NCBI GenBank assembly: GCA_900547565.1
Contig: URHI01000002.1
Location: 793-64,792, forward strand
Direction: 5' to 3'
Length of the DNA: 64,000 nucleotides
Source: an uncultured Eubacteriales bacterium
GTDB taxonomy: Bacteria; Bacillota; Clostridia; Oscillospirales; CAG-272
The translations under genes were made by a program, and so were the position numbers. Positions 985 to 26,436 of this stretch are shown piece after piece. Under the pieces are notes generated by a model. That model did not search any database and had not been told where the DNA came from. It saw only the letters and a program-made list of their open reading frames with translations. Position 1 is the stretch's first letter. Each line of letters starts with the position of its first letter.

Positions 985-985
985 C

Positions 986-1933: not shown

Positions 1934-1976
1934 GTGCTCTTTCTCCTTATATAGATTTCTTCATTAATATTATATA

Positions 1977-8238: not shown

Positions 8239-8745
8239 ATGGAGTACACAAAGAGAATGACCGCTGCCAGAGATAATTTCCTGGCCGGCTACAATTGCGC
8301 TCAGTCGGTACTGCTGGCTTTCGGAGATGTCACGGGCCTTGATGACGACACCGCGGCTCGGCTTGCATCCTCTTTCGGCGGAGGAATGGCACGTATGCGG
8401 GAGGTCTGCGGGGCAGTAAGCGGAATGTTCATGGCCGCAGGACTGATTTTCGGCTACGGAACTCCCGAGGTGGGCGACATAAAAGCAAGACACTATGCCT
8501 TTATCCGTTCGCTTGCGGACGAATTCAAGGCTATGTACGGCAGTATAATATGCCGAGAGCTGTTGGCAGGAATTGAAACCACACCGGGTGGAAACCCCGA
8601 AGCCCGCACGTCTGCATATTACAAAAAGCGCCCGTGCGCACAGTATATTGCCGCCTGCGCAGGCATACTCGAACGGCATCTGGACGAACATACCGGGCAG
8701 AGCCAACAAATTTTATATAAAACCGAGGTGAACAATAATGCTTAA
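8239..8745 (+). CDS. C_GCAxxG_C_C family (putative redox-active) protein
   Basis: 168 aa with the family cysteine pattern: GYNCAQSVLLAF…, EVCGAVSG, IICRELL, RPCAQYIAACAG. Confidence 0.85.
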   Translation: MEYTKRMTAARDNFLAGYNCAQSVLLAFGDVTGLDDDTAARLASSFGGGMARMREVCGAVSGMFMAAGLIFGYGTPEVGDIKARHYAFIRSLADEFKAMYGSIICRELLAGIETTPGGNPEARTSAYYKKRPCAQYIAACAGILERHLDEHTGQSQQILYKTEVNNNA

Positions 8746-12350: not shown

Positions 12351-12576
12351 AATATCTCCTTATACTTTCTCATGAGATTGTTTTTTGAGACAGAGCCGAT
12401 AACCGGGCATTATCAGCATGGCATAGTATATCATACCTCGAATTTTTTTTCAAGGGAATTCAAAAAAATATCACGGTTATTTCGTAGAAAGTTAACAATT
12501 TGGGCAATATATCTCCGGCAGATCGCAGGAAACAGGGATTTTTTGCCTCTTTCTGGCAGCGCAGCATTATTTATAA

Positions 12577-12636: not shown

Positions 12637-13578
12637 GTGATACACTCAACCGGAAGCTATGCGTCATCTGACGGGCGCAGCACTATAATCTACAGCCTTT
12701 GGGCACCGGAAACTCCGCCGCGCGCCGTGCTTCAGATAAGTCACGGAATGTGCGAATATATAGAAAGGTATGCCGCCTTTGCCGAATACCTCACCGGGCA
12801 TGGCTTTGCCGTTGCCGGAAATGACCACATCGGACACGGACGCAGTGCCGCGGCAGCAGAGGAGCTCGGATATATCCCGCGTGCGGCCGGCGGTGATGCA
12901 CTGGTGGCTGACCTGTGGACGCTGACCGGCATCATTAAACAAAAATACCCCGGTCTGCCGTATTTTCTGCTGGGACACAGCATGGGGTCTTTTATAGCAC
13001 GGCTGTATCTGGCGGCGCATGGCGAAGCACTTGACGGTGCGGTCATAATGGGCACCGGCGGTCCGGGCAATCCTACCGGTCCGGCAAAATTCATGGCCCG
13101 GGCCGACGCTACATTTCATTCCGGGCACCATCGTTCGTCCTTCATAAATGATCTTGCCTTCGGATCCTACACCAAGCATTTCGGCAAGAACGCCACACAA
13201 TACGACTGGCTGTCGCGTGACGAGGACAACAAGCGGCGCTATGCTGCCGATCCGTTCTGCACCTTCACCTTTACCGCAGACGGATTTTATACCTTGTTTG
13301 ACATGCTCGGAAGGGTATCGGACAAAAAATGGCCCGAGATGCTGCCGAAATCGCTGCCGGTGCTTATGGTCAGCGGTGCCGACGACCCTGTCGGAGACTA
13401 TGGACGCGGTGTGGAAAAAATATACCGGCGCCTGACTGCGGCGGGACTGACAGACGTGACGCTGCGGCTGTACCCCGAGGATCGCCACGAAATACTCAAC
13501 GAGATCGACCGCGACCGGGTATATGCCGACATTTTAGCATGGTTTGAATCAAAGCTGAACAAAAGCAAGGATAATTAA
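12637..13578 (+). CDS. Alpha/beta hydrolase (lysophospholipase / monoacylglycerol-lipase-like)
   Basis: Start moved to GTG 12637, 7 nt after AAGGAGG. Nucleophile elbow GHSMGS. The lysophospholipase-like N-terminus is …VLQISHGMCEYIERY…. Confidence 0.85.
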   Translation: MIHSTGSYASSDGRSTIIYSLWAPETPPRAVLQISHGMCEYIERYAAFAEYLTGHGFAVAGNDHIGHGRSAAAAEELGYIPRAAGGDALVADLWTLTGIIKQKYPGLPYFLLGHSMGSFIARLYLAAHGEALDGAVIMGTGGPGNPTGPAKFMARADATFHSGHHRSSFINDLAFGSYTKHFGKNATQYDWLSRDEDNKRRYAADPFCTFTFTADGFYTLFDMLGRVSDKKWPEMLPKSLPVLMVSGADDPVGDYGRGVEKIYRRLTAAGLTDVTLRLYPEDRHEILNEIDRDRVYADILAWFESKLNKSKDN

Positions 13579-13581
13579 AAC

Positions 13582-14031
13582 ATGGTAGATAACATCAGAA
13601 AAACCACCGGGCGGGTGCTTGCAGTTGACTTCGGAGACACGCGGACAGGTCTTGCCGTATCGGACAGCGGGCGGTTTCTGGCATCCGGGCTGGGGTATGT
13701 ATCACCCGGCGGAATAGTAAAGACAGCTGATGCGGTAGCCGTGCGGGCGCGCGAGCTCGGCGTGAGTGCGGTCGTGGTGGGACTTCCTGTCAATATGAAC
13801 GGCACAGAGGGGGCGCGCGCGGGGCGCTGCCGCGAGTTTGCCGATCTGCTGGCCGAAAGACTGCCCGGAGTCGCCATTGACATGGTTGACGAGCGGCTGA
13901 CAACTATGGAAGCGGCGCGTTACCTCAACGCCACCGACACACGCGGCAAAAAGCGAAAAGGGGTAATTGACTCGCTTGCGGCCGAGATAATTCTGCAGAG
14001 CACGCTTGACAGACTGAAAAACGGAACATAA
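13582..14031 (+). CDS. ruvX: Holliday-junction resolvase-like RNase H-fold protein RuvX/YqgF
   Basis: 149 aa. GRVLAVDFGDTRTGLAVSD is the YqgF N-terminal motif, and VVGLPVNMNGTEG is also present. Confidence 0.9.
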   Translation: MVDNIRKTTGRVLAVDFGDTRTGLAVSDSGRFLASGLGYVSPGGIVKTADAVAVRARELGVSAVVVGLPVNMNGTEGARAGRCREFADLLAERLPGVAIDMVDERLTTMEAARYLNATDTRGKKRKGVIDSLAAEIILQSTLDRLKNGT

Positions 14032-14094
14032 GTGTCAGTAGCCCGACACTTGACAGTCCCGGTAATGCGAATCGTTGCCGATATAAAAACGCAA

Positions 14095-14132
14095 AACAGC
14101 ACCTGAATAGAAAATTCAGGTGCTGTTTTTTT
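14095..14132. terminator. Bidirectional intrinsic terminator (ruvX on + and the ceramidase-like operon on -)
   Basis: 14-bp stem aacagcacctgaat / attcaggtgctgtt. T-run 14126..14132 on the + strand and TTTT on the - strand. Confidence 0.7.
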
Positions 14133-14177
14133 AATACGGTCAAGCCTTGTTTTTGTCCGTAGGCCGGCATACCGGGG

Positions 14178-15674
14178 TCAATCTGACACAAACATTTTAC
14201 GGATCATGTCAAGGGTCTGCTCGGCAAGCTGATAGCCGCCCTCATGTCCGACAAAACCGCTTGAAACATAGCCCGAATAATGTCCGCCGCGCTCAGCCTT
14301 CTCGGTCGGGAGATAGCCCAGTCCGTCGCAGGCAAGCTGTATCAGAAAAGTCTGACAAGCCGCACTTCTTGCACGGATTATGTTGGCAAAGTCGAGAAAC
14401 AGCTCAAAAGGACTGCTTGCTATGGCGATATCCCCGAGCCGGACGACATGCACCTCGGTGCTGACCGTAGTTACTGTCTTCTGCATATCATAACGCTCTG
14501 CAATACCGGCGCAGACATGCATACGTGCGCTGTCAACAAAATTGAGCGCGGATTTGTCGTGGGTTTGCACAAACTCACTGAGCTTTGCACGGGCCTCGGC
14601 ATTCTCCTGCTCGCTCACGCGGCGGAGAGGAAGCGCCAGATCCACCGCAATATGCTCAAATTCAGCCTGATCCACAAGCGTCTGCTTATCCTCCTCAAAT
14701 ACCGCGATGACCTCAGACGCAATACGGCGTCCTATCTTCCATGAGCCGCGGATATCGAACATTGACGGATCTGCGTGACGGACCGGAGGATCGGAACGAA
14801 TGACATTCGGGTCCTCGATGGGAGTTTCCGGCTCAACCCAACGGATAAGATCTCTCGGGCACTGATCTCCGGCCGGCGCACAGAGCGCGAGCACCTTAAA
14901 GTCCTCCCCGAAGTGCTCACGAAGCAGGATCTTTACCTTGCCCCAGTAATCTGAGGAAATGAAATAGCGCTGTTCAAGCACCTGCGCCGGGCAGGCGATG
15001 TTAATGACTGCGCCGGTCGGCTTTTTTGCCTCATCATATGTAAACAGCAGCTCAATGCCGTTGTCATTACCGCCCTCAAGGGCAAAGAAATCCTCGGTTG
15101 CAGTGTCACCCCACATTTTCGCGCTGCCGTCCTTATAGCAGACACGACGGCACATGCCGACTGCAGCGCGGCCAAATGCCGCAGAGTAGTACGCCGGTCT
15201 GCGCCCTCTCCATGCCGCGACGATGATATCCGCCAGTCTGTCCGCAAGATAGAGCGCCGCCTCGTCCGGCTCCATTAGACAATCCGTTTTGATATTGCCC
15301 GCACCGAACATGGGGGCACTTTCAAGTCCCAGATATTTGTTCAACGCATCGAGTCCCAGCTCGCGTTCGGAGGAGTACAGAAGCGAGTTATGTGTGTGTG
15401 TCGCAGAAATAATTATCTTGGAAGTATCGACGTCCGGCTCCGCAGCCTTGACTCTGTGACGGACCGCTCTTATAAGATCGCAAAAAATATGCGTTTCATC
15501 TACAGAGCATATTATCGTCTGTTCATCACCCGCCTCAATGGCGAGCGCGGTTGCCGTCACCGGCGTCTCAACATACTGAGAAATACGGTCATAGAACTGT
15601 CCCGCAAGACGGATGCGCCTGCCTTCCGGTGTTATACTGCCCTCTGCCCAGCCCAGTTTTATTGTTTTCTTCAT
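14178..15674 (-). CDS. Neutral/alkaline-ceramidase-like superfamily protein (function uncertain)
   Basis: 498 aa with no signal peptide. The N-terminal layout (…GWAEGSITPEG…, IISATHTHNS) resembles the Ceramidase_alk N-domain (SATHTHSGP-type motif). I did not recognise the rest. Confidence 0.45.
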   Translation of the reverse strand: MKKTIKLGWAEGSITPEGRRIRLAGQFYDRISQYVETPVTATALAIEAGDEQTIICSVDETHIFCDLIRAVRHRVKAAEPDVDTSKIIISATHTHNSLLYSSERELGLDALNKYLGLESAPMFGAGNIKTDCLMEPDEAALYLADRLADIIVAAWRGRRPAYYSAAFGRAAVGMCRRVCYKDGSAKMWGDTATEDFFALEGGNDNGIELLFTYDEAKKPTGAVINIACPAQVLEQRYFISSDYWGKVKILLREHFGEDFKVLALCAPAGDQCPRDLIRWVEPETPIEDPNVIRSDPPVRHADPSMFDIRGSWKIGRRIASEVIAVFEEDKQTLVDQAEFEHIAVDLALPLRRVSEQENAEARAKLSEFVQTHDKSALNFVDSARMHVCAGIAERYDMQKTVTTVSTEVHVVRLGDIAIASSPFELFLDFANIIRARSAACQTFLIQLACDGLGYLPTEKAERGGHYSGYVSSGFVGHEGGYQLAEQTLDMIRKMFVSD

Positions 15675-15689
15675 AATGCAATAAATCCT

Positions 15690-17465
15690 TTATTTAATGA
15701 ATCCTGATGAGGTCGCATGATACGGAAGATCCCATGAGGTTATTCTTGTCGCCGAGTTGTAGTACTCCCTGACGTGAAGCTGATTGATCAGATAATAATT
15801 ATATGTGAATTTCTCCAGATACACCGGAACAAGTGCATCGGAAGTGGTGAAGAGCGCTATCTCAGGGTCTATTGCGGCATATATCGCGTTTGTTCCGCCG
15901 ACACCGCCGTGGTGAGCGACCTGAACAATATCGCTCTTGAGATAAGAGCCGAATATCTTGGCGGTCAGGTTGTTCGGATCCTCCTGCGCGTCGCCGAGGA
16001 ACATGATACGCTCGCCTGCAATATCCACACTGAATATGAGCGACGAATTGTTCCAGTTCTTGCTTGACGCAATGGTACGGGTTTTTGTTACATAGTCCTC
16101 ATGCGTATAGAATATTTCAATAACCGCATCGCCGATATTATAGACATGGCCGGTGTGCGCCTTATACATCGGAGTACCCTTGTAATAATTGCTCACCTGC
16201 CCGAAAAAGCGGGAGTATGCGTTCTTTTCGTCATTGGAAACATTTGAATCGCCCTCGGACGGGAAATTGAGAATTATGCTCTCCAGCCGGACCTGCTTTG
16301 AATAGACGGCGCTGAAGCTGCAAAAGCCGCCGATATGGTCGGAATGTGAGTGCGTGAATATCCATGCGGCGATGACAATATTGTTTTTGTCCACCGCCTG
16401 ATCCAGCATACAAGCATAAAGCGCCTGGGAATATGAGCCCCAGCTGCCGTCCGAAACGCCGCCGTCGATAACAATAAAGCGACCGTCAGACAGACGTATC
16501 AGAAAACACATCAGCCCGGAATCCGCCTCAGTGCCGAGATAGGTATTGCCGTCTGCATACTTACGCCCGATCATTGTGAGCTTGGGTGTGGTAACGGCCT
16601 TACCGGTACTTGTCTCGGAGACAAAATAGTTGCTTTCCGGCTCAACTATCACGCGGGTGGTCTTGTTGGACGGGGTGTGGTAGACAGTGACCGCCGAATC
16701 GTTGCCGGTATAAACCGAAAACAGGTTGTTGTTCACCGTTCTTTGGCTGACGGATACAAAACCGCTCCGTTCCAGCTCAGAGGTGATTCCGGTATAGGTC
16801 CCGGTGTCAGTTGATGACATGAAAAGCTGATATGCCGAATCCCCGCAGTTGACTATACTGTCGGGGCGGATATTACCGAACACCGGAATCTTGCTGAGCG
16901 TCGGGACAATGGTCGTTGTGAAGCAATCCTCACTTTTAAGCGTCAGCGTTTTCTTGTCGGCACTGAGTGACTTTGTAACAAGATCGCAGAAGCGTTGGGC
17001 AAGCAGCGACATTGACGTGTCCTGCCAGCTTGTAACGACGACCTTGTTTCCGACTATCACGACTCCGAAATCGCCGTATGAAATAGAGTCAAGTACCTCT
17101 TGTGTCTGATGGTAACCGGTACGCCCCACCAAAATCTCCACTGTGCTGTCATCGTAAACACCGTCCCGGCTGAAATCATCGGTAAAAACAAAGGTTTCAC
17201 CGGGGCAAAGGCCGACCAGATGCTCGCGGATCTTGATTGCGGCATCTATCTCCTCGTCAGAGGCATCATCCGGGCGGATAAGGCGGAAAAGCGGTTTTCC
17301 GTTGTCGATAAGCGTGATCTCGGATGACGGCGGCGCTGTTTCCGCCGCCGCAGTGGTGGTGGTCTGACTGCTGTCAGGGGCGTTGTTTTCGCAACCGAAG
17401 ACAAGCACAGCCGCCGCAAGGCAGACAAACAATATACATATTAGTTTAATATACCTGTTTCTCAT
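15690..17465 (-). CDS. Lipoprotein: unknown N-terminal domain plus MBL-fold metallo-hydrolase (paralog 2 of 3)
   Basis: Lipobox LVFGCE. FTHSHSDHIGG, FLGDAQED, VAHHGGVGG. Long collinear identity blocks with paralog 3 (IRLSDGRFIVIDGG / IRLSDGSFLVYDGG). Confidence 0.8.
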   Translation of the reverse strand: MRNRYIKLICILFVCLAAAVLVFGCENNAPDSSQTTTTAAAETAPPSSEITLIDNGKPLFRLIRPDDASDEEIDAAIKIREHLVGLCPGETFVFTDDFSRDGVYDDSTVEILVGRTGYHQTQEVLDSISYGDFGVVIVGNKVVVTSWQDTSMSLLAQRFCDLVTKSLSADKKTLTLKSEDCFTTTIVPTLSKIPVFGNIRPDSIVNCGDSAYQLFMSSTDTGTYTGITSELERSGFVSVSQRTVNNNLFSVYTGNDSAVTVYHTPSNKTTRVIVEPESNYFVSETSTGKAVTTPKLTMIGRKYADGNTYLGTEADSGLMCFLIRLSDGRFIVIDGGVSDGSWGSYSQALYACMLDQAVDKNNIVIAAWIFTHSHSDHIGGFCSFSAVYSKQVRLESIILNFPSEGDSNVSNDEKNAYSRFFGQVSNYYKGTPMYKAHTGHVYNIGDAVIEIFYTHEDYVTKTRTIASSKNWNNSSLIFSVDIAGERIMFLGDAQEDPNNLTAKIFGSYLKSDIVQVAHHGGVGGTNAIYAAIDPEIALFTTSDALVPVYLEKFTYNYYLINQLHVREYYNSATRITSWDLPYHATSSGFIK

Positions 17466-17483
17466 TTCAGCTCAAAGCCTCTT

Positions 17484-18980
17484 TCAGTTGATATCTGAGA
17501 CAGCCGCCTCGATATCACTGCGTATCTTTTTGTCTATCATCTTGAAGGTAGACGAAATAGTTGTAGAGCCGTAGACATTAAGGTTATTGAGAATGGAAGT
17601 GCAGGTACCGAAGTCGTTGGCCATTGCAGTGTCGACCGCACCGCTTGCATAGGCAAGGTTGATCATTTCAATTGCCGTGGGATCCTTGGAGACTTTATAG
17701 TGAAGCACGGTACCTATGTGCTTATCAACAAGATTCTGATAAGAGAGCGCTCCGAGCGTCTCGAGGATCAGCGCGGTACGCTCGACATCGCCTGCGCTTG
17801 TGGGGATAACAAAGCCTTCCGTAGCGCTGTAAACGGGAGTTACATAGTCAGCCTGGCTTTCATCAAACTTAGGAACCACAACGATACCATACTCGGTCTC
17901 AGAGTCGCGCAGCGTCGTAACTTCGTTTGTTCCTGTTGTCAGGAAAAGCGAACGTCCTTCCGTGAACACCTGAATATAGTTGGCAATACCGCTTGTGCTA
18001 GTATATCCGGCATAGGGAGAAGGCTGCTTACCGGCGATAGCGCAGTAGGGGCTGTTGATAAAGTACTCAGTGAACTTTTCAAAGGCAGTGATATACTGTG
18101 AGGACAGACCGTTCCATACCGGCAGCCCGTCTGTGTCCCGGGTAGTCAGGGTAATACCCGAGCTGAGTATGAGGTTGCGGGAATGATTTATGTGACCGGT
18201 AAGTCCCATAATATCCTCTCCGGGAGAAAACATTCCGTCGCCGTTATTGTCTGTAGCAGCTGTCTGCATCATGGTGTATGCCTTTTCCCATGTCCACTTG
18301 CCGTCCGAAACCAGCTCATACGGATCCTCAAGTCCGTAAGAACCGATCATTTCCTTGTTGAAGCAGAAAATATAGAAGCTGCTGTAATAGATAAGATTGG
18401 CATTTCCGAATGTAATATAGCGCTTGTTTCCGATGTTGACATCGGCATTGAAGCTCTGCTCCCACCAGGGATTGGATAGGTCAAGTCTGTCCAGTTGGGT
18501 CTGATCATATATGTAGTTTTTCTTGTACAGATTCAGAGCGTTGTAGGTCTGGAGAAGTGCAAGGTCGTAAGAATCATCGCCGGATGCTATCGCAAGCTCC
18601 ATAAGTCTCTGAGAGATATCATTGGTGGTTATTGTCTCTTCAAGGCGTATGCGGAGTCTCTCTTCGATGTCTATCTGACGCTGGTAAATGGTATCCTGTA
18701 TCGTGTCGCCTGTTATATCGGATGCGGTCATGTTGACGATAGCCCAGGTGCGGGACGGTGTCAGAATACTGAATGTGTAGTTGTTGAAATCCTCCACGGG
18801 AATATCGGCAAGAGGATCATATGAGGTTTCCTCCGGCACGGTTTGTTCGCCGGTGGCAGAGGTAGTCGTATCATTTGTGTCATTGTTTTTGTCGGATGGA
18901 TTTGTACAGGCTGTCAACAATGTAGCAACGAGAATGATAACAGCGACAAGCATAATCAAAAGTTTCTTTTTCGTTTTCAT
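17484..18980 (-). CDS. Extracellular solute-binding lipoprotein (large LplA-like SBP) with no cognate permease genes nearby
   Basis: Start moved to ATG 18980 (MKTKKKLLIMLVAVIILVATLLTACTN, lipobox LTAC), which has the AAGGAAGG SD. ~498 aa, a size and composition typical of CUT1 polysaccharide SBPs. Confidence 0.8.
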   Translation of the reverse strand: MKTKKKLLIMLVAVIILVATLLTACTNPSDKNNDTNDTTTSATGEQTVPEETSYDPLADIPVEDFNNYTFSILTPSRTWAIVNMTASDITGDTIQDTIYQRQIDIEERLRIRLEETITTNDISQRLMELAIASGDDSYDLALLQTYNALNLYKKNYIYDQTQLDRLDLSNPWWEQSFNADVNIGNKRYITFGNANLIYYSSFYIFCFNKEMIGSYGLEDPYELVSDGKWTWEKAYTMMQTAATDNNGDGMFSPGEDIMGLTGHINHSRNLILSSGITLTTRDTDGLPVWNGLSSQYITAFEKFTEYFINSPYCAIAGKQPSPYAGYTSTSGIANYIQVFTEGRSLFLTTGTNEVTTLRDSETEYGIVVVPKFDESQADYVTPVYSATEGFVIPTSAGDVERTALILETLGALSYQNLVDKHIGTVLHYKVSKDPTAIEMINLAYASGAVDTAMANDFGTCTSILNNLNVYGSTTISSTFKMIDKKIRSDIEAAVSDIN

Positions 18981-19005: not shown

Positions 19006-19038
19006 TGTTTCGAAGCTTTTTGGCGATTATTCGAAACA
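19006..19038. promoter_or_regulatory. Candidate LacI-family operator pair in the leader of the SBP operon
   Basis: TGTTTCGAA (19006..19014) and its inverted copy TTCGAAACA (19030..19038). Both lie downstream of the predicted -10 on the reverse strand. Confidence 0.4.
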
Positions 19039-19050
19039 GGATTCATTCTT

Positions 19051-19079
19051 ATTATACACAAAGTTTTTGCATGAGTCAA
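19051..19079 (-). promoter_or_regulatory. Sigma-A type promoter for the SBP / MBL-2 / ceramidase-like operon
   Basis: Reverse strand: TTGACT (19079..19074), 17 nt, TATAAT (19056..19051). Confidence 0.55.
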
Positions 19080-19205
19080 GTATATTTTCAAAATTAATTT
19101 GCAATCCGGGTAAAAATATTGACGCAAATTTGTCAAAAACGCCTTGACAAAAGCTCGAAAATATGATAATCTTTTAAATAGATATTATGCTCGCTTATTT
19201 GCAAA

Positions 19206-19215
19206 GTTTCGAAAC
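19206..19215. promoter_or_regulatory. Candidate LacI auto-operator (perfect 10-bp palindrome)
   Basis: GTTTCGAAAC, with the same half-site as 19006..19038. It sits between a TTGACA box (19145..19150) and the lacI-family ATG at 19228. Confidence 0.4.
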
Positions 19216-19227
19216 ACGGAGGAACGC

Positions 19228-20229
19228 ATGCCAACGATCAAAGACATTGCCGCATCTGCCGGAGTCTGTCCGTCAACGGTTTCAAAGGCTCTGCGCGGGA
19301 GCACGGATATCCAACCTGAAACAATATCCCGCATACGACTGATCGCCGAGCAGATGGGGTACGATCTCAGCCGTCTCAACAGCAAAGTCACCAACAGCAA
19401 AACTGTAGGCGTTGTCTTTGTTGAACTTAACAGTGAGTACTACAGCAATATCTTCAATAATTTCAAGCAGTTTATGGAGTCCGCAGGATACCGCGTCATA
19501 ACCATAATCACCGATTTCAGGTCGGTAGAGAAGCAGCAGGATGCCATAGAATACCTGCTCAGCTGCCGTGTGAGCGGCATACTTTATCTGACAGAGGCCG
19601 CATTCAACATTGAAAAGCTCCGTGAAAGAATATCGTCATGTGGCACGGGATTTGTAATGATAACCCGTATGAGCTGCATCGACTTCTGCGACATCATAAG
19701 CGTCAACCATGCACTGGGAGCGCGCATGGCAGTAGAGCATCTGTACGGACTGGGACACCGGCGGATAGCTTTTATCGGAGAGCCCAACACCCATGCACGC
19801 GAAGATGCCTTCCGCGACACCATAAAAGAGCTGGGCATCACCCCGGACGAGGATTACATAATCGTCCGCAACGAGCGCAACTGTACAGGCGGTTATGAGG
19901 CAACAAAGGAGCTGCTCAGAAAGACGGCCGGAAAACGCCCCACCGCAATTTTCGCGGCATATGACCAGCTCGCGTACGGTGTTATGCGAGCAGTCAGAGA
20001 GGCGGGACTGCGCATCCCGGAGGATATTTCTATCATCGGTGTAGATAATAACCAGGTGTCCGATTACATTACTCCGGCTCTGACCAGCATCGAAACCACT
20101 GCCGATGAGGTCGGCAAGATAGCCGGAGAAATGCTTCTCGGACGTATACAAGGCGATACGTCCACATATCAGATGGTTTACCTCAGCCCGAGACTCTGTC
20201 CCAGAGCTTCGTGCCGTAGAATAATATAA
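19228..20229 (+). CDS. LacI/PurR family transcriptional regulator
   Basis: Start moved to ATG 19228 (MPTIKDIAASAGVCPSTVSKALRG, the canonical LacI HTH), which has the ACGGAGGA SD. The rest is a periplasmic-binding-fold sugar-sensor domain. Confidence 0.9.
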   Translation: MPTIKDIAASAGVCPSTVSKALRGSTDIQPETISRIRLIAEQMGYDLSRLNSKVTNSKTVGVVFVELNSEYYSNIFNNFKQFMESAGYRVITIITDFRSVEKQQDAIEYLLSCRVSGILYLTEAAFNIEKLRERISSCGTGFVMITRMSCIDFCDIISVNHALGARMAVEHLYGLGHRRIAFIGEPNTHAREDAFRDTIKELGITPDEDYIIVRNERNCTGGYEATKELLRKTAGKRPTAIFAAYDQLAYGVMRAVREAGLRIPEDISIIGVDNNQVSDYITPALTSIETTADEVGKIAGEMLLGRIQGDTSTYQMVYLSPRLCPRASCRRII

Positions 20230-20246: not shown

Positions 20247-21899
20247 ATGAATAAGGTTTGTTTCACATTTGAGAACATCTCGCTGACAAAAGAAAGCTTT
20301 GACGAGCTATGCCGTGTCCTGAGAGTTCGCCTTGAGGCGCGTCGTTGCCAGGTCGGAAGCCTGGGACTGACGCTCAGCTTCGATATCCGCCCCGACATGG
20401 ACTGCGACAGCTTCCATGTATATAATAATGATGGCAAGATCATGCTGGAGGCCAACAATCTCTGCACGCTATATGCCGCCGCAGGCAGACTGATGACGCT
20501 CGGCCGCTTTGACGGCGAGGGCGGCTTCACACTGCCGGCACTCCCCATAAGGCATAAAATGAAGAAGTCACTTCGCGGTATGTATCTCGCGTCGCACTTC
20601 TTTAACTATCACCACGCCGCCCCCTTTGAGGAGTCGCGGGAGATCATCGCCGACCTGGCACTGCGCGGCTACAATACTCTGATGATGATCATCGGAGTTC
20701 AGCACTATGAATCATATTCCGACCCCGAAGCGGTCGAAATGATCGAGCTGGTCAAACGAATCCTGGCTTACGGCACACTCTGCGGAATGGTACCTGCAAT
20801 GGTCATGTACTCCAACACCGGCTTCAAAACCATACCCGAAGGACTTGAAGCTCAGTCAAAAATTGATGACAGCGGTCGCTACCGCCGTGACCTTATCGCC
20901 GTTTACAACACCGAGATCTGCCCCTCCAACCCCGAGGGCATGGCAGAGATCGAACGTCAGCACCGCGCGTTCTTCGAGGCATTCCGCGGTACGCCGATCA
21001 AATATTTCTTCGAATGGGCATATGACGAGGGCGGCTGTCTTTGCAAGGACTGCTACCCCTGGGTCACCAACGGCTTCATGAAGGTCGCCGAGCTTGACCG
21101 CCGTCTTATCCCGGAATACGGCTTTGACGCACAGCTCTGTATTTCCACATGGCACTTCGGGCTCGCAATGGAGAACGAGTGGGAGATCTTCTACGACAAG
21201 CTGGTTGCCGGTGAATACAGCTGGGCACCTTACATCATGACCGCGTTCCAGAGCGGAAGACTTCCGAAAGTATTTGTGGAGAGAGGCGTACCGGAGGGTG
21301 TCCGCTTCATCGACTTCCCCGACATAAGTATGTGCGGTGCCTACACCTGGGGCGGCTTTGGCGCTAACCCGATTTCTATGTTCCTCGACAACGCCGAAAA
21401 GAACTGCGGCGCAATGCACGACGGCGGCTTCCCCTACTCGGAGGGCATTTACGAAGATATCAACAAGTGGATCTGCGCAGGCTTCTACTGCGGTTACTAC
21501 GATAACTCGGCTGACGCCGTCCGCGATTACATACGCTTCGAATACGGCTTGGAGGACACAGAGACGCTGCTCCGCGCCATTCAGCTCATGGAAAGCTCGC
21601 TTCCGCGAACTGTTGAGCGCAATCCCGACAAACCTTGGGCTGTCAGAATCCGTTGGGGGACGGCGATCCCTGAGGTATATCGTATCCTGACCGAGATCGA
21701 GCCTAAGGTACCCGAGGCATACCGCCACACATGGAAGTGGAGATGTCTCTATCTGCGCGCCGTCATAGATTACCGGCTCTATCTCAACCTCGGAGTCGTT
21801 AAGAATGACGAAATCGCTCAGGAATGTTACCGCGAGATTCGGGATATGTTCCATCTTGAGAACGCGATATTCCATGTCAGCACACTCTGCGACAAATGA
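20247..21899 (+). CDS. Uncharacterised cytoplasmic glycoside-hydrolase-like protein, tandem paralog A (Cys4 motif)
   Basis: 550 aa. A GH20b-like N-terminal lobe (…IMLEANNLCTLYAAAGRLM…) is followed by LRGMYLASHFFNYHH…. Cysteine motif EICPSNPEG…x39…YDEGGCLCKDCYPW, and GFPYSEGIYEDINK. Confidence 0.55.
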   Translation: MNKVCFTFENISLTKESFDELCRVLRVRLEARRCQVGSLGLTLSFDIRPDMDCDSFHVYNNDGKIMLEANNLCTLYAAAGRLMTLGRFDGEGGFTLPALPIRHKMKKSLRGMYLASHFFNYHHAAPFEESREIIADLALRGYNTLMMIIGVQHYESYSDPEAVEMIELVKRILAYGTLCGMVPAMVMYSNTGFKTIPEGLEAQSKIDDSGRYRRDLIAVYNTEICPSNPEGMAEIERQHRAFFEAFRGTPIKYFFEWAYDEGGCLCKDCYPWVTNGFMKVAELDRRLIPEYGFDAQLCISTWHFGLAMENEWEIFYDKLVAGEYSWAPYIMTAFQSGRLPKVFVERGVPEGVRFIDFPDISMCGAYTWGGFGANPISMFLDNAEKNCGAMHDGGFPYSEGIYEDINKWICAGFYCGYYDNSADAVRDYIRFEYGLEDTETLLRAIQLMESSLPRTVERNPDKPWAVRIRWGTAIPEVYRILTEIEPKVPEAYRHTWKWRCLYLRAVIDYRLYLNLGVVKNDEIAQECYREIRDMFHLENAIFHVSTLCDK

Positions 21900-21914
21900 T
21901 AACCGGAGAAAAAT

Positions 21915-23570
21915 ATGAAATTCTGCTTCAAAAATAATAATATGGGCAGTGAGAGCTATGAAGTTCTCTGCCACACCGCGGTTCGTGTCCTCTCTGTGCG
22001 CGGCTCAGAGCTGCTTGACGCACCGGACAGAGATGCCTTCACAGTCACACTGCGCAAGGACGCATCCTTTAAGGACGACCGCTTCACCGTAACACCCGCC
22101 GACGGCGGCGTTGAGCTTATCGGCGCAAACGATCTGGCACTCCACGCGGCTTTTGGAAGATTCATTCTCTCCTCGGGCTTTGACGGTCGCGGCGGCTTCT
22201 CGCCCGTTGACAAAGCCATTGACTTCACGCCCAGATCGCCCTTGCGCGGAATGTACTTTGCAACTCATTTTTACAATTTTTATCATGTAGCACCAATAGA
22301 GAAGGTATATGAGGTAATAGAGGACCTTGCACTGCGCGGATGCAATAACCTGCTCGTATGGTTCGATATGCACCACTTCAATTCCATGCAGGACGAAGGC
22401 GCACAGGTTCTTGTAAAGCGTCTGCGCGCCATGCTCGGATACGCAAATAAGATCGGCATACACGGCTCGCTGACAATGCTGTCAAACGAGGCATTTGCTT
22501 CGTCGCCGGTTGAGTTGCGCGCCGAATGGGAGGCGATCGGCGGCTATCACGCCAAACCCGATGACCACTTTCACCTCGAGATCTGTCCCAGTAAAAAGGG
22601 CGGAATCGAAGAGATCCTTCGCGAACGCCGCGAAATGCTTTCGTATTTCCGCGACCTCGATATTGCCTATATCTGCTACTGGCCCTATGACCAGGGCGGC
22701 TGCACCTGCATGCAATGCCAGCCCTGGGGCTCCAACGGATTTATCAAGCTGTTGCCGCATTTTCAGGAGCTCGTTGCCGAGATGATGCCGAACGCAAAGC
22801 TCATTCTCTCCACATGGTATTTTGACAAATTCATAGACGGGGAATGGGATTCATTTTACCCCAAGCTCACTGACGGCACTATCAGGGACGTTCCCTATAT
22901 CATGTCCTTCTTCTTCAACGGAGAAATGCCGAAATGCGTCGCCAAAGGGGGAGTTCCCAAGGGATATAAATTCATCGACTTCCCCGAGATAAGTATGTAC
23001 TCCTGCAGCCCCTGGGGCGGCTTCGGCGCGAGCGTGCTGTCACGCTTTCTCGACCGTACAAACAAAAAAACTGCCGGGCTCTACTCCGGCGGCTTCCCGT
23101 ATTCCGAGGGTATTTTCGAGGACATAAACAAGTTCATCGAGCTTACATGGTACTCAGGTCTTTACACCGATGCCGCAGATGCCGTCCGTGCGTACGTCCG
23201 CTCGGAATTCTGCGTTGAAGGAGAAGCACTTGATGAGTTAACCGACGCAATTATCCGCACCGAAACGGCTATAGCACGCGGGAAGGTATACGGCGGCGAG
23301 TCCAATCGCTATGAGATCGCAGACACAAGCGACGTTGAGTATGTATATCGGGTCCTCACAAAATACAACGCAAAGCTGCCCGAGGCTATCCGCAGCAGCT
23401 ATCGCTTCAGACTGTTTTATCTCCGTGCCGTCATCGACCGCGAGCTGGTAAGCTGTGATGGGTATCCGCTCCGTTCCGAAATATGCCAGGCGGCCATGCG
23501 TGAGGTAAACGAGATCTACTTTGCCACCGACGCCACAAAGCGTTGGGTCAAGGCTCCCGTGGGAGTATAA
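21915..23570 (+). CDS. Uncharacterised cytoplasmic glycoside-hydrolase-like protein, tandem paralog B (Cys4 motif)
   Basis: 551 aa, collinear with paralog A: LRGMYFATHFYNFYH, EICPSKKGG…YDQGGCTCMQCQPW, GFPYSEGIFEDINK. Confidence 0.55.
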   Translation: MKFCFKNNNMGSESYEVLCHTAVRVLSVRGSELLDAPDRDAFTVTLRKDASFKDDRFTVTPADGGVELIGANDLALHAAFGRFILSSGFDGRGGFSPVDKAIDFTPRSPLRGMYFATHFYNFYHVAPIEKVYEVIEDLALRGCNNLLVWFDMHHFNSMQDEGAQVLVKRLRAMLGYANKIGIHGSLTMLSNEAFASSPVELRAEWEAIGGYHAKPDDHFHLEICPSKKGGIEEILRERREMLSYFRDLDIAYICYWPYDQGGCTCMQCQPWGSNGFIKLLPHFQELVAEMMPNAKLILSTWYFDKFIDGEWDSFYPKLTDGTIRDVPYIMSFFFNGEMPKCVAKGGVPKGYKFIDFPEISMYSCSPWGGFGASVLSRFLDRTNKKTAGLYSGGFPYSEGIFEDINKFIELTWYSGLYTDAADAVRAYVRSEFCVEGEALDELTDAIIRTETAIARGKVYGGESNRYEIADTSDVEYVYRVLTKYNAKLPEAIRSSYRFRLFYLRAVIDRELVSCDGYPLRSEICQAAMREVNEIYFATDATKRWVKAPVGV

Positions 23571-23628: not shown

Positions 23629-24708
23629 ATGAAACGCTTTATTTCTTTATTCCTGACGGTATTCGTAGCAATGTCAGTATTCGTCACTGTTACATACGCA
23701 GCCAATGACACTCTCGCTCCCGAGGAGCATGTTGCAAAGGCTATCTACGGTACACCAACTATTGACGGTGAGGCAGACGGCATCTGGGACTACGCACAGA
23801 TCAACTATGTTACCAACGTATTCCAGAACGACGAGATCACACCTCCTTCCACCTGCCAATTCCGTGTAATGTACGACGATACCTACCTTTATTTTCTCGT
23901 TGAAGTAAAAGACGAAACCATGGGTGATGCCGAATGGGAGGCCCTTTCTCTCGGCGGCAATCTTTGGAAGAGAGACGGTGTCTCATTAACGTTTTCACCC
24001 GACAACAACCGCGATGTAACCAACGGCCAGGTTGCTCCCGCATTCTGGTTCATCATCGGCGCATTCGGAAACACGGCAAACTTCAACACTGTTCCGAGCA
24101 ACGTATTCATTTCAGAGGATGAGGGCGCAACAAAGATGTTCGCTATCTCCTACCTTACCGACTATACCACAGGTGTCAATTCCGGGTACACCATTGAGCT
24201 TAAGGTCAACCTCCAGCCCCGCTACGCCGACATAAAAATGCAGGCCGGCACCGAGATCGGGTTCGATATCTACCTCAACGATAACAACAATATCATCATG
24301 TCCGCAAACCGTAACTACGGTCTGACATGGACAGGCGAAGTCAACTCCTATAAAAACAACGCAGTCAAGGGTGTGATCGAGCTGCAGGACAAGGACGTAA
24401 AATTCGAAAACGAGCCTCAGACCACCGCTCCCACAGACACCACCCCCGAAGAACCCACCACTACCGAGCCCATAGATACTACTCCGAAGGATACCACAAC
24501 TGAGGCTCCAAAGGATACCACAACTGAGGCTCCAAAGGATACCACAACGGCAGTGTCCAAAGACACCACAACTGTGGCTACCAAGGACACCACCACTGCG
24601 GATCCCGGCTCCAAGGGAGGATGCGGATCTGTCGTCGCGGCATCTGCACTGATACTCGCTGTTGCTGTCTTCGGCGGAGCTGTAATTTGCGGCAAAAAGG
24701 AGAACTGA
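23629..24708 (+). CDS. Secreted CBM9/DOMON-like carbohydrate-binding protein with a Thr-rich repeat stalk and a C-terminal TM anchor
   Basis: Signal peptide …VTVTYAAND. PTIDGEADGIWDYAQ…FRVMYDDTYLYFLVEVKD is CBM9-like. Five KDTTTxxx repeats. The C-terminus is GGCGSVVAASALILAVAVFGGAVICGKKEN. Confidence 0.6.
   Translation: MKRFISLFLTVFVAMSVFVTVTYAANDTLAPEEHVAKAIYGTPTIDGEADGIWDYAQINYVTNVFQNDEITPPSTCQFRVMYDDTYLYFLVEVKDETMGDAEWEALSLGGNLWKRDGVSLTFSPDNNRDVTNGQVAPAFWFIIGAFGNTANFNTVPSNVFISEDEGATKMFAISYLTDYTTGVNSGYTIELKVNLQPRYADIKMQAGTEIGFDIYLNDNNNIIMSANRNYGLTWTGEVNSYKNNAVKGVIELQDKDVKFENEPQTTAPTDTTPEEPTTTEPIDTTPKDTTTEAPKDTTTEAPKDTTTAVSKDTTTVATKDTTTADPGSKGGCGSVVAASALILAVAVFGGAVICGKKEN
24487..24606 (+). 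repeat. 5 x 24-nt in-frame tandem repeat (KDTTTEAP-type stalk)
   Basis: aaggataccacaactgaggctcca occurs twice exactly, followed by three diverged copies. Confidence 0.85.
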
Positions 24709-24714
24709 TCCGTT

Positions 24715-26388
24715 ATGTCCCTGTTTAAAATTAATTCGGACGAAACATTGTATGTGGTCTACCCCGCAGCAATAACAAGTCATGAATTTGAACAGGCGGA
24801 GACAATAATGAACCGGATACGGGCGCTTGGCGGCGTCCGCCCGGTTCTGCTTTGCGACCGCAACAAATCCCCGGAAAACATACTTCCGGACAACGCTCCG
24901 GCTATTCTCGTCGGTAACACCATCGCCACTGAAAGCCGCCGGGTCCTGTCGGAGCTGACATACGGAGAGGCCGAGCTGCGCCTGGTCGGAAGACGGGTAG
25001 TTGTTGCCGCGCATACCGACGACCTGCTCCCTGCCCTGATATCGTCTCTGGCTGACAGCATGAAGCTCGACGGCGACACTCTCATCATGGATGTTGACAA
25101 GCGCCGCATCAAGGGAACAAGATTTCTGCACAGACTGCCGCTTTGTGACGGTGGGCGGCTGATCGCCTACCGCAAGAGCTGTGATGAATGTGATATGGTG
25201 GTCCTCGCGGATACCGATGAAAATATGTACCGAGCATATCTCAATAAGCTCGGTGGGATGTTCCACATGGAATGGGAGCGCGAGCTGCACGGAAATCTCT
25301 TTGCCGCCTTCTCAGATGACACCGTGGCGATACATGTATATTACACCCCTCACAATCATTTCATACGCGCGCTGATCGAGCCGGTCTCCAATTTATATGT
25401 TCAATGCAACGAGAGCTTCAGTACCGTCACGACCCCGCAGCTTACCTTTATGGGCCGTCGCTTCGGTGATAACTTCCGCTATCTCGGCAAAGATGCCGGG
25501 GCCGGTCAGATGAGCTACTGCATCAGACTTTCCGACGGTAGCTTTTTGGTATACGACGGAGGTCTTGCAACCGACGCTTTTGCCGACGCAATATATGATG
25601 TCATGTGCGACCAGGCTCCAGATCCCCAAAAGCTCGTGATCGCCGCCTGGGTAATCACACATTCCCACGCAGACCATATCGGCGGTTTTCTCAAATTCTC
25701 CGAGAAATATTCCGATAAGGTCAAGCTTGAGCGGCTTATGTTCAACTTTCCATCCATGCAGGACGCCGAGGCGTTCCGTGAGGCCTGGAACATTCGCCTG
25801 ACTAAGGAGGCACTCTACAACCGCTTCCCCGATGCAATTTTCTCCAAGCTGCACAGCGGCGATGTTGTCAAGGTCCGCGACGCCGAGATCGAAGTGCTTT
25901 ACACACACGAGGATTTCGTGATTCAGTACATTTCAATGCTGAATACTCATATTTATAACAACTGCTCGCTTGTCTCACGAATGACGCTTGGGGGAACAAA
26001 ATTCATGTTCATGGCAGATTCTCAGGAGGACGCCAACGCTATCATAGTGGCAATGTACGGCGATTATCTCAAAAGCGATATGCTGCAGGTCTGCCACCAC
26101 GGTGGGTGCGGGGGAACTGTTCCGCTTTATGAAGCCATCGACCCCGAAGTTGCAATTTTCAGCACTACCGACGCCCTTCTCCCCGAATATCTGTCTGTCA
26201 TTTACAACTATCATTTGGTATATGAACAGCACGTCCGCCAGATATTCAACTCAGCTGAAAACACCATAACCCTTCCCCTGCCCTACACTCCGGGCGAGTG
26301 CAACATTCCTCCATTCGAAGGCACTATCGTTGAAAAGCTTTCAAGCACAAAGGGATGCGTTATCAAAACCGCCAATAAGGAATCATAA
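24715..26388 (+). CDS. Cytoplasmic (no signal peptide) N-terminal domain plus MBL-fold metallo-hydrolase (paralog 3 of 3)
   Basis: ITHSHADHIGG, FMADSQED, VCHHGGCGG. Close paralog of 15690..17465. Confidence 0.8.
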   Translation: MSLFKINSDETLYVVYPAAITSHEFEQAETIMNRIRALGGVRPVLLCDRNKSPENILPDNAPAILVGNTIATESRRVLSELTYGEAELRLVGRRVVVAAHTDDLLPALISSLADSMKLDGDTLIMDVDKRRIKGTRFLHRLPLCDGGRLIAYRKSCDECDMVVLADTDENMYRAYLNKLGGMFHMEWERELHGNLFAAFSDDTVAIHVYYTPHNHFIRALIEPVSNLYVQCNESFSTVTTPQLTFMGRRFGDNFRYLGKDAGAGQMSYCIRLSDGSFLVYDGGLATDAFADAIYDVMCDQAPDPQKLVIAAWVITHSHADHIGGFLKFSEKYSDKVKLERLMFNFPSMQDAEAFREAWNIRLTKEALYNRFPDAIFSKLHSGDVVKVRDAEIEVLYTHEDFVIQYISMLNTHIYNNCSLVSRMTLGGTKFMFMADSQEDANAIIVAMYGDYLKSDMLQVCHHGGCGGTVPLYEAIDPEVAIFSTTDALLPEYLSVIYNYHLVYEQHVRQIFNSAENTITLPLPYTPGECNIPPFEGTIVEKLSSTKGCVIKTANKES

Positions 26389-26403
26389 CCGTACAAATCA
26401 AAG

Positions 26404-26436
26404 GCCGCATGAGTGAAATACGCTCATGCGGCTTAT
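26404..26436 (+). terminator. Probable terminator of the lacI-to-MBL-3 operon
   Basis: 10-bp stem gccgcatgag / ctcatgcggc with a 9-nt loop. The T tract is weak (ttatcatt). Confidence 0.45.

Follow-up and report, generated by a model that had tools for sequence, protein, structure and literature searches.

Two tandem paralogs from a gut Eubacteriales bacterium and the large, unclassified family of probable GH20-superfamily glycosidases to which they belong

Introduction

The window considered in this work, by which we mean the whole analysed stretch of 64,000 nucleotides (nt), comes from an uncultured Eubacteriales bacterium (contig URHI01000002.1 of assembly GCA_900547565.1, positions 793 to 64,792 of the forward strand), and all the coordinates of its features given below are those of the window. 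It carries two adjacent genes, A and B, that encode collinear paralogous proteins. We think that A and B probably represent two subtypes, separated long ago, of a large and unclassified glycosidase family of the GH20 superfamily (GH, glycoside hydrolase), and that they work as intracellular enzymes of a LacI-controlled locus. The glycosidase activity that we propose is suggested by the predicted fold, the homology, the conserved acids and the carbohydrate context. The family would thus comprise probable sugar-cleaving enzymes that belong to the GH20 superfamily yet fall outside GH20, which represents a family-level novelty among the GH20-like TIM-barrel glycosidases. By the tests run, it is outside GH20, GH42, GH163/GH185, GH84, GH89, GH115, GH123 and GH138.

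The paralogous pair and the extent of its family

The products of A and B share 38% identity over 541 aligned columns by BLASTP (E 1e-120) and are collinear from end to end, a paralogy that far exceeds chance. The two genes are separated by a gap of 15 nt, a purine-rich stretch resembling a ribosome-binding site is present 5' of each of them, and neither protein has a signal peptide at its N-terminus. A first-pass annotation of this DNA, made by a model from the letters and their open reading frames (ORFs), had described two adjacent, collinear, cytoplasmic proteins of about 550 amino acids (aa), and the lengths of 550 and 551 aa, the end-to-end alignment and the lack of signal peptides agree with it. 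The motifs that it quoted, LEANNLCTLYAAAGRLM / LIGANDLALHAAFGRFI, LRGMY(L/F)A(S/T)HF and EICPS, are all present in the pair, and the Cys-containing loop reads YDEGGCLCKDCYPW in A and YDQGGCTCMQCQPW in B. In its composite motif EICPS…(39 aa)…YD the elements are real, but the number 39 is the offset from the first Cys to the second one and not the distance from EICPS to YD.

The relatives of the pair are numerous. A word-indexed search returned 383 of them, and among the best 120 a precomputed Pfam domain was found in one (PF02838, Glyco_hydro_20b). Named members are few, and all of them, including those of a cluster look-up of ten members, are called 'hypothetical protein' in the source. When a hidden Markov model (HMM) of the family was run against 1.84 billion cluster representatives, with clusters counted at 50% identity, the numbers of clusters matched were 1541 (E≤1e-3), 1037 (E≤1e-10) and 493 (E≤1e-30). 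When a single genome per species was scanned, relatives turned up in at least 582 species genomes, 582 of the 600 matched stretches being confirmed. The hosts are mainly uncultured, with Clostridia/Eubacteriales from the guts of humans, goats, cattle, yaks, deer and horses, together with Victivallis, Verrucomicrobiota, Kiritimatiellae, Planctomycetota, Chloroflexota, Armatimonadota, Acidobacteriota, Bacteroidales and one Bathyarchaeia genome. That so few hosts are in culture may be the reason why the family is unstudied.

Predicted fold and relationship to GH20

Structure prediction with AlphaFold2 was based on an alignment of 59 sequences, while conservation is counted over 244 full-length members. 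The model of A (predicted local distance difference test, pLDDT, 95.7; predicted TM score, pTM, 0.94) consists of an α/β N-terminal domain, a (β/α)8 barrel and a helical C-terminal domain. The strands of the barrel are predicted at residues 109-114 (β1), 144-148 (β2), 182-188 (β3), 253-257 (β4), 296-300 (β5), 330-332 (β6), 354-356 (β7) and 391-394 (β8). The first of them coincides with the motif LRGMY(L/F)A, at which the first-pass annotation had expected a barrel to begin, and the predicted TIM barrel agrees with that expectation.

Comparison of the whole model with the Protein Data Bank (PDB) by Foldseek gave as top matches the three-domain GH20 enzymes GcnA and GH20C (E 6e-17, query TM score, TMq, 0.56), followed by GH138, GH89 (TMq up to 0.62), other GH20 enzymes, GH84 and GH115, with identities of 8-14%. 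A separate model of the barrel alone (residues 96-436, pLDDT 87.4) served to check for matches to GH42 or clan GH-A that the N- and C-terminal domains might have masked. Here GH20 also leads, with lacto-N-biosidase, hexosaminidases and dispersin, and behind it come the GH84 O-GlcNAcase, the GHL10 protein Cwp19 and GH138, with TMq of 0.5-0.6. Neither GH42 nor any other family of clan GH-A is among the top 50 Foldseek matches, be it with the whole protein or with the barrel alone. The predicted fold is consequently that of a TIM-barrel glycosidase of the GH20/GH84 neighbourhood, to which none of the solved structures is close.

At the sequence level, the family HMM matched GH20 chains of the PDB across the N-terminal domain and β1 (E 1e-3). 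The Pfam models of N-terminal domains, i.e., GH20b (PF02838; 8/59), NAGLU_N (9/59) and GH67N, are matched in 8-9 of the 59 aligned members. With hhalign, a GH20 profile made from six annotated plasmid genes is aligned over 256 columns, from the N-terminal domain through β4, with Prob 94.9% and E 4e-8, and R110 falls on the invariant Arg of GH20 β1. The N-lobe of GH20 type that had been proposed in the first pass is thus supported, as this homology covers the N-terminal domain and PF02838 is matched in 8/59. The family shares with GH20 the N-terminal GH20b-type domain, the (β/α)8 barrel and the β1 Arg, and with TIM-barrel glycoside hydrolases in general the barrel, the conserved acids at the C-terminal ends of the strands and a carbohydrate context. 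The relationship is one of remote homology to GH20 and not of membership.

Two subtypes and a carboxylate with two positions

Four residues, D260, E399, G262 and W302, are invariant in the family (244/244), and position 359, after β7, is Glu in 232 members and Asp in the other 12. The remaining universally kept polar residues are Y397, S398, N190, N120, H117 and R110. Against this constant background, two signatures are found in the 59-sequence alignment that are never mixed: the A-type one, formed by [G/A]150, Q152, T/S191 and E261, and the B-type one, formed by D150, M151, H152, E191 and Q261. There is also a small third type with D191 and N261. Over all the full-length members, position 261 is Gln in 128, Glu in 78 and another residue in 38.

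Positions 191 and 261 are far from independent. Exactly one of them carries a carboxylate in 226 of the 244 members, versus about 134 expected from independence arithmetic on the residue counts; both are acidic in 5 (about 51 expected), and neither is in 13 (about 59 expected). On a neighbour-joining tree, parsimony requires the carboxylate to have changed position independently 8 times or more. As 191 follows β3 and 261 follows β4, and these strands are adjacent, the most economical interpretation is that a single functional carboxylate reaches one place in the active site from either strand. We regard this either/or placement as a neat experiment of nature on the plasticity of the active site.

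The B-type is the common form, with 66 of the 91 genome copies, and it stands alone in 52 loci. The A-type is a Clostridial offshoot that accounts for 10 of the 91 copies; it precedes a B-type gene in tandem in 6 other loci and is alone in 3. The first-pass annotation had taken the D-E of A and the D-Q of B as a sign that the two might differ in catalytic competence or specificity. The contrast is real, but it is no sign of lost activity in B, since most members have D-Q and Glu is then always present at 191.

Proposed catalytic centre and mechanism

The catalytic centre would be situated at the C-terminal face of the barrel, where the invariant D260 follows β4. The carboxylate beside D260 would be provided by E261 in the A-type (T/S191 + E261) or by E191 of β3 in the B-type (E191 + Q261), and the pocket would be completed by R110 (β1), Y397/S398/E399 (after β8) and Glu/Asp 359 (after β7). 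The four cysteines, one before helix α3 and the CxCxxC after D260-x-G-G, would hold a metal and stiffen the β4 loop, as in GH42.

With regard to the chemistry, our leading guess, which we hold only tentatively, is retaining neighbouring-group catalysis on a β-linked 2-acetamido sugar, by analogy with GH20, GH84 and GH185. In such a mechanism D260 would act as general acid/base. Polarisation of the acetamido group would fall to residue 261, which would do so directly in the A-type, where it is Glu, and with the backing of Glu191 in the B-type, where it is Gln. We lean towards it because GH20 and GH84 are the nearest folds and GH20 is the only significant homology, and because GH185 offers a precedent for Asp with Gln/Glu, His and Tyr in enzymes without HxGGDE. 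The alternation of E191+Q261 with T191+E261 would be expected as well if residue 261 polarises the acetamido group. Moreover, neighbours with an amide or amino-sugar flavour recur around the family, which also favours a 2-acetamido substrate: a ceramidase-like amidohydrolase is the most frequent of them (15 loci), a Halomontanus rarus plasmid encodes a protein annotated with a ceramidase N-terminal domain next to a sulfatase and a true GH20, and genes for a BadF-type kinase and for a SIS protein resembling MurQ lie near an A-type gene. The fusion of one member to an aminoglycoside N-acetyltransferase domain is a further circumstantial hint.

Several observations weigh against a GH20-superfamily enzyme for amino sugars. 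The HxGGDE motif is absent, with WPYD[Q/E]GGCxCxxC in its place, and hhalign lays the GH20 HxGGDE on the WPYD[Q/E]GGC stretch with a 5-residue indel (GGDE vs GGCT), so that the equivalence of residues is ambiguous. By the same method the second half of the barrel is not aligned with GH20. The model of the GH20 catalytic domain, PF00728, matches neither A nor B at E≤1 and is not among the 13 Pfam families found in the 59 members at E≤0.1, and the structural likeness to every solved family is moderate (TMq 0.5-0.62). Regarding gene context, no amino-sugar genes of the nagA/nagB type are found in the loci. The downstream isomerase, kinase, TIM-like, SIS and transaldolase/FSA genes point to a neutral aldose or pentose, and the associations with GH43, GH3 and GH127 also fit pentose-rich plant glycans. 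Finally, the locus in the window has a solute-binding protein (SBP) gene but no permease genes.

Part of this evidence fits an alternative that we consider possible, although it is the less likely one: a classical Koshland retaining glycosidase for a neutral pentose or hexose, with the 191/261 carboxylate or D260 as acid/base and Glu/Asp359 of β7 as nucleophile. The acid after β7 is universal, the β4/β7 geometry resembles that of clan A, and an AraA-like isomerase and an XylB-like kinase occur in 14 loci. The syntenic operons without amino-sugar catabolic genes, the GH43 and GH3 fusions and one GH127 neighbour would suit it too. Nevertheless, the sole significant sequence homology is with GH20, the nearest folds are those of neighbouring-group enzymes (GH20, GH84 and GH185-like space), the D + Q/E pattern mirrors GH185, and clan GH-A does not appear in the top 50 structural matches. 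Neighbouring-group catalysis on a 2-acetamido sugar stays therefore our first, tentative choice.

Relation to classified families

Searches of Pfam-A and NCBIfam gave no match for A or B, the best Pfam model being NAGLU_N at E 0.25, and phmmer searches of both proteins against PDB sequences returned only noise, i.e., fucoxanthin-binding proteins and designed SAKe repeat proteins. In the full-text literature neither a description of the family nor a characterised member was found. Taking Pfam, NCBIfam, PDB sequences and full-text literature as proxies for the HMMs of CAZy, we agree with the first-pass view of an unassigned family: the Pfam, NCBIfam and PDB sequence searches are empty for both proteins, and none of them gives a clear match to an existing characterised GH family.

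For individual families the picture is similar. The GH163/GH185 model PF16126 (DUF4838) has no match in A or B at E≤1 and one among the 59 members, at E 0.016. For GH89, GH84, GH138, GH115 and GH67 no sequence match to a catalytic domain was found, the weak matches to NAGLU_N and GH67N being confined to the N-terminal domain. GH123 (DUF4091) was set aside as it has no Pfam match and its solved structures are not in the Foldseek list.

It is nonetheless conceivable, if improbable, that the pair is part of a characterised CAZy family for which there is no Pfam model or structure, or that it is an outlying DUF4838 (GH163/GH185) member. GH163 and GH185 are likewise described (PMC10570127) as distant GH20 relatives with cytoplasmic members and non-canonical residues, and the weak DUF4838 match in 1/59 members goes in the same direction. 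The lack of PF16126 and NCBIfam matches in A and B, the source names, which are all 'hypothetical protein', the TMq of at most 0.62 in the PDB and the empty literature search speak against it. An unclassified family of the GH20 superfamily is in our opinion the better description.

The Cys4 site

The four cysteines are C225/C264/C266/C269 in A and C224/C263/C265/C268 in B. They follow the family spacing C-x38-C-x-C-xx-C, with the offset of 39 between the first and the second Cys mentioned above, and each of them is kept in 242-243 of the 244 members. The exceptions are four: two members lack C266 only, P0258 lacks C225 and C269, and P0263 lacks C225, C264 and C269. The joint loss in the last two fits residues that form one site. 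By analogy, the Cys4 is most likely a structural metal site, probably for Zn, and its location directly after D260-x-G-G means that it would fix the catalytic loop. N-termini resembling signal peptides are found in about 33 of the 244 members, and the hosts include phyla with many aerobes, for which reason Zn fits better than an oxygen-labile cluster.

These data also bear on the proposal that one or both proteins are not hydrolases, with B as a dead partner or sugar-binding subunit, or with the Cys4 as an Fe-S or redox centre, which we regard as quite improbable. The recurrence of the A→B tandem would be in line with a partner role, most of the hosts are anaerobes, and a CxCxxC with a remote Cys could ligate an Fe-S cluster. 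However, B-type genes are the majority and mostly stand alone, so B is not merely the partner of A; both types keep every invariant polar residue; the fusion partners of the family are bona fide GH domains; and the secreted members and aerobe-rich host phyla suit Zn better.

The first-pass annotation had pointed out that GH42 β-galactosidases bind structural Zn with one upstream Cys plus a CxCxxC just after the acid/base Glu, and had found the present motif reminiscent of it, although with another spacing and surrounding sequence. This account of GH42 is accurate: in a Bacillus enzyme of that family, Zn is bound by Cys113/153/155/158, and Glu148, the Glu of NEY, serves as acid/base five residues before the CxC (PMC8573354). 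The spacing in A and B is almost the same, and the Zn loop of the Thermus enzyme 1KWG reads DNEYGCHDTVRCYCPRC. The resemblance holds as far as the motif pattern is concerned, but common descent finds no support. Against a GH42 profile rebuilt from nine plasmid-borne genes, hhalign gave Prob 2.7% and E 0.017 over 156 columns with both Cys elements in register, and the score of 29.5 exceeded the 13-24 of 20 column-shuffled profiles; when the four cysteines of the family were masked, the alignment was gone and an unrelated one was obtained instead. Glyco_hydro_42 (PF02449) is not matched, the architecture is unlike the trimerisation and C-terminal domains of GH42, and the GH42 motifs NEY (after β4) and ME (after β7) are absent, with YD[Q/E]GG and FPEISM in their places. 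A distant kinship with GH42/clan GH-A β-galactosidases through an inherited Zn site is hence very improbable, and we rejected it on account of the alignment lost on masking, the absence of GH42 from the top 50 structures and the far stronger GH20 homology. The likeness to GH42 is confined to the motif and is probably due to convergence; if inherited, it would be very ancient.

As a separate observation, a 54-aa query in the style of the GH42 Zn loop (about 80% identical to 1KWG 133-186) matched Bacillus β-amylases (1B90 etc., E 3e-5), and the B. cereus β-amylase is also among the barrel-only Foldseek matches of the family.

The locus in the window

The two genes are part of a locus of about 12 kb, bounded on each side by a terminator-like hairpin, in which two divergent operons have closely spaced genes (Table 1). 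On the + strand, lacI is followed by A, B, a CBM9_1-like protein and a cytoplasmic protein of the metallo-β-lactamase (MBL) fold. The − operon encodes an SBP lipoprotein, an MBL-fold lipoprotein and a 498-aa protein, in this order.

Table 1. Positions of the pair, its active-site codons and the other features of the locus (window coordinates)
Feature	Position	Strand	Remarks
Paralog A, A-type	20247..21899	+	550 aa; ORF listing and translation
Domains of A			Predicted GH20b-like N-terminal α/β domain, residues ~1-100; TIM barrel, ~101-420; C-terminal helical domain, ~421-550 (AlphaFold, Foldseek, hhalign)
A, T191, loop after β3	20817..20819	+	Covaries with 261: Thr/Ser at 191 when 261 is Glu
A, Cys4 and putative active-site loop	20919..21053	+	C225 20919-20921; Y259-D260-E261 21021-21029
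A, CxCxxC codons		+	C264 21036-21038; C266 21042-21044; C269 21051-21053
A, acids of the second half of the barrel	21321..21443	+	D359 21321-21323, after β7; E399 21441-21443, after β8, in Y397-S398-E399
Paralog B, B-type	21915..23570	+	551 aa; ORF listing and translation
B, putative active site and Cys4	22488..22718	+	E192 22488-22490 (position 191 of A); C224 22584-22586
B, D259-Q260 and CxCxxC		+	D259-Q260 22689-22694; C263, C265 and C268 within 22701-22718
LacI-family regulator	19228..20229	+	First gene of the + operon; probable ATG 19228; Pfam LacI and Peripla_BP_3; 46% identical to the L001 ortholog
CBM9_1-like protein	23629..24708	+	Pfam CBM9_1, E 8e-19; neighbour in 9 loci
Cytoplasmic MBL-fold protein	24715..26388	+	557 aa; last gene of the + operon
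Solute-binding lipoprotein, SBP_bac_8	17484..18980	-	First gene of the divergent operon; probable ATG 18980; 46% identical to the L001 ortholog
MBL-fold lipoprotein	15690..17465	-	591 aa; 37% identical to the cytoplasmic MBL-fold protein; HSHSDH metal motif intact
498-aa protein	14178..15674	-	No Pfam match of its own; homologs weakly match the neutral-ceramidase N-terminal domain
Terminator-like hairpin	26402-26434	+	
Terminator-like hairpin	14129-14093	-	
GTTTCGAAAC-type palindromes	19204-19215 and 19007-19018		Divergent promoter region 19007..19217

The palindromes of the divergent promoter region are plausible candidates for LacI operators. The copy at 19204-19215 contains a perfect 10-bp palindrome (19206-19215) and precedes the lacI ATG by 12 nt. 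The copy at 19007-19018 has one mismatch to the 12-mer and is located between a strong promoter-like site, TTGACT-17-TATAAT (19079-19051, −) and the ATG of sbp. With up to 2 mismatches, the 12-mer is not enriched across the window.

The CBM9_1-like protein starts with a signal peptide and carries a hydrophobic membrane anchor at its C-terminus; its linker is rich in Thr and Pro and contains 'KDTTTEAP' repeats. It is probably a surface glycan binder, and its tethering to the membrane without a sortase motif is unusual. The 498-aa protein is 32% identical to a homolog in the locus L001 of another genome (2056-3471) that weakly matches the N-terminal domain of neutral/alkaline ceramidases, and other copies of this family are found in L003 (497-1984) and L101 (4083-4730). 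It may be a sugar N-deacylase. It was also considered as a third paralog of A and B and discarded, given an hhalign Prob of 0.1% and its ceramidase-like nature. Neighbours of about 495 aa in L004 and L015 turned out to be unrelated to it, and a 496-aa protein of L001 is an SBP.

In the scheme that we propose, the CBM9-like surface protein and the MBL-fold lipoprotein would act on an external glycan, the SBP lipoprotein would capture the glycan fragments, and A, B, the second MBL-fold enzyme and the ceramidase-like amidohydrolase would dismantle them in the cytoplasm.

The window holds in fact three MBL-fold paralogs of about 560-590 aa, at 8738-10522 (+), 15690-17465 (−) and 24715-26388 (+), two of them lipoproteins and one cytoplasmic. 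Their best named relatives are only MBL domains of the ComEC/Rec2 nuclease type. They share an N-terminal 'ILVG.T…' pattern, which we take to resemble the N-terminal domain of GH20b/DUF4838-type proteins. A role as phosphodiesterase, sulfatase or esterase on a decorated glycan is possible for this trio.

The nearest permease pair is encoded at 112-984 and 986-1933, in the region 112-5480 (−) of the window. The adjoining gene encodes a protein of 1167 aa that combines an SBP domain with a long N-terminal region, for which Golvesin_C is a weak match. A BspA-type LRR_5 protein is encoded near the locus at 10719-12350 (−), and in L017 an LRR_5 protein (11687-12463) is found directly 3' of a B-type gene. 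The isomerase, kinase and transaldolase genes of the syntenic loci described below were looked for in the window and are absent.

Syntenic loci and gene neighbourhoods

The whole locus is found in synteny in a lineage from the human gut, of which L001 and L002 are representatives, the latter from a Hadza gut sample. The B-type protein of these two loci belongs to a cluster of 413 member sequences that includes Hadza gut metagenome contigs. In L001 the operon is extended (12797-18239) by an XylB-like FGGY kinase, a 452-aa AraA/FucI/SftI-like isomerase, a TIM-like protein, a 202-aa SIS protein, YjbQ, a 228-aa transaldolase/FSA and LacI, and this extension is syntenic in L021, L023, L024, L030, L048, L025, L055 and L003. 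The isomerase matches the NCBIfam model of sulfoquinovose isomerase at E 1e-8, far below the cut-off of the model. The extension has the look of a catabolic route, not described so far, for the monosaccharide that is released.

Clustering of the neighbours over 85 loci found the ceramidase-like protein to be the commonest one, with 15 loci, followed by the FGGY kinase, the AraA-like isomerase and LacI with 14 each, MBL-fold proteins with 13 (25 genes), SBP and CBM9 with 9 each, GFO/IDH/MocA oxidoreductases with 8 and S1 sulfatases with 6. GH127, beside one member, and GH2 are further neighbours. The S1 sulfatases are encoded near single B-type genes in L035, L036, L037, L041 and L083, which are metagenome-assembled genomes of Eubacteriales, and in L078 (Brocadiia). 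Their presence beside the B-type in two unrelated phyla hints that some members act on sulfated glycans. Members of the family are also fused to GH3, GH43, Laminin_G_3, an α/β-hydrolase esterase, Big_5/HpiC1-like domains and, in one member, an aminoglycoside N-acetyltransferase. Context and fusions together place the family in glycan breakdown.

Significance

The standout features of the family are an invariant Cys4 next to the putative catalytic Asp, a replaced catalytic motif and a carboxylate that has moved repeatedly between strands. Knowledge of its activity would give thousands of genes an annotation and reveal the substrate of a conserved and otherwise opaque gut operon with MBL-fold, ceramidase-like, CBM9-like, AraA-like and XylB-like proteins; a new CAZy family, next to GH20, GH163 and GH185, would probably result. 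There is even a slim chance that the pair is the founding material of a new CAZy GH family in which the carboxylate has hopped at least 8 times and the Cys4 goes beyond structural Zn, as a redox/Fe-S switch or a catalytic metal.

Comparison with known systems

The family resembles GcnA (2EPK-2EPO) and GH20C of S. pneumoniae (5A6A etc.) in having an α/β domain, a barrel and a helical domain in the same order. It shares with GH20 the conserved β1 Arg and, in the A-type, an acidic pair (D260-E261) after β4. In contrast with GH20, from which the family is distant in sequence (10-14% identity), most members have D-Q instead of D-E, with the carboxylate moved to β3. The Cys4 site is, to our knowledge, not a feature of GH20. 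The succession of α/β domain, barrel and helical domain is also that of GH89 (CpGH89/NAGLU), GH84, GH138 and GH115 (Foldseek E 1e-12 to 1e-14), whose catalytic motifs differ from those of the family, and we know of no Cys4 site in these enzymes either.

A close parallel is found in GH163 and GH185, the DUF4838 families, which are, like A and B, cytoplasmic, distant from GH20 and devoid of HxGGDE. According to PMC10570127, the GH185 enzyme Sp_0475 is a 6-sulfo-β-GlcNAcase, and the residues proposed for GH185 are D309 as Asp acid/base and Q174 as Gln, replaced by Glu in few members, with His and Tyr nearby. Sulfatases are also encoded near some members of the present family. This Asp + Gln/Glu couple parallels D260 with Q/E261, and the His and Tyr parallel H152/153 and Y397. 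Q174 and D309 are far apart in the GH185 sequence, whereas the pair is adjacent here; and a Cys4 site goes unmentioned in the section of that paper on GH185 that was consulted, while it is essentially invariant in the present family.

In GH42 (1KWG; Bacillus 3TTS) the same Cys pattern appears after the catalytic residue of β4, with a spacing of 40-44 from the first Cys to the CxC versus 39 here. The Cys cluster is variable within GH42 (PMC8573354), whereas in the family to which A and B belong it is essentially invariant.

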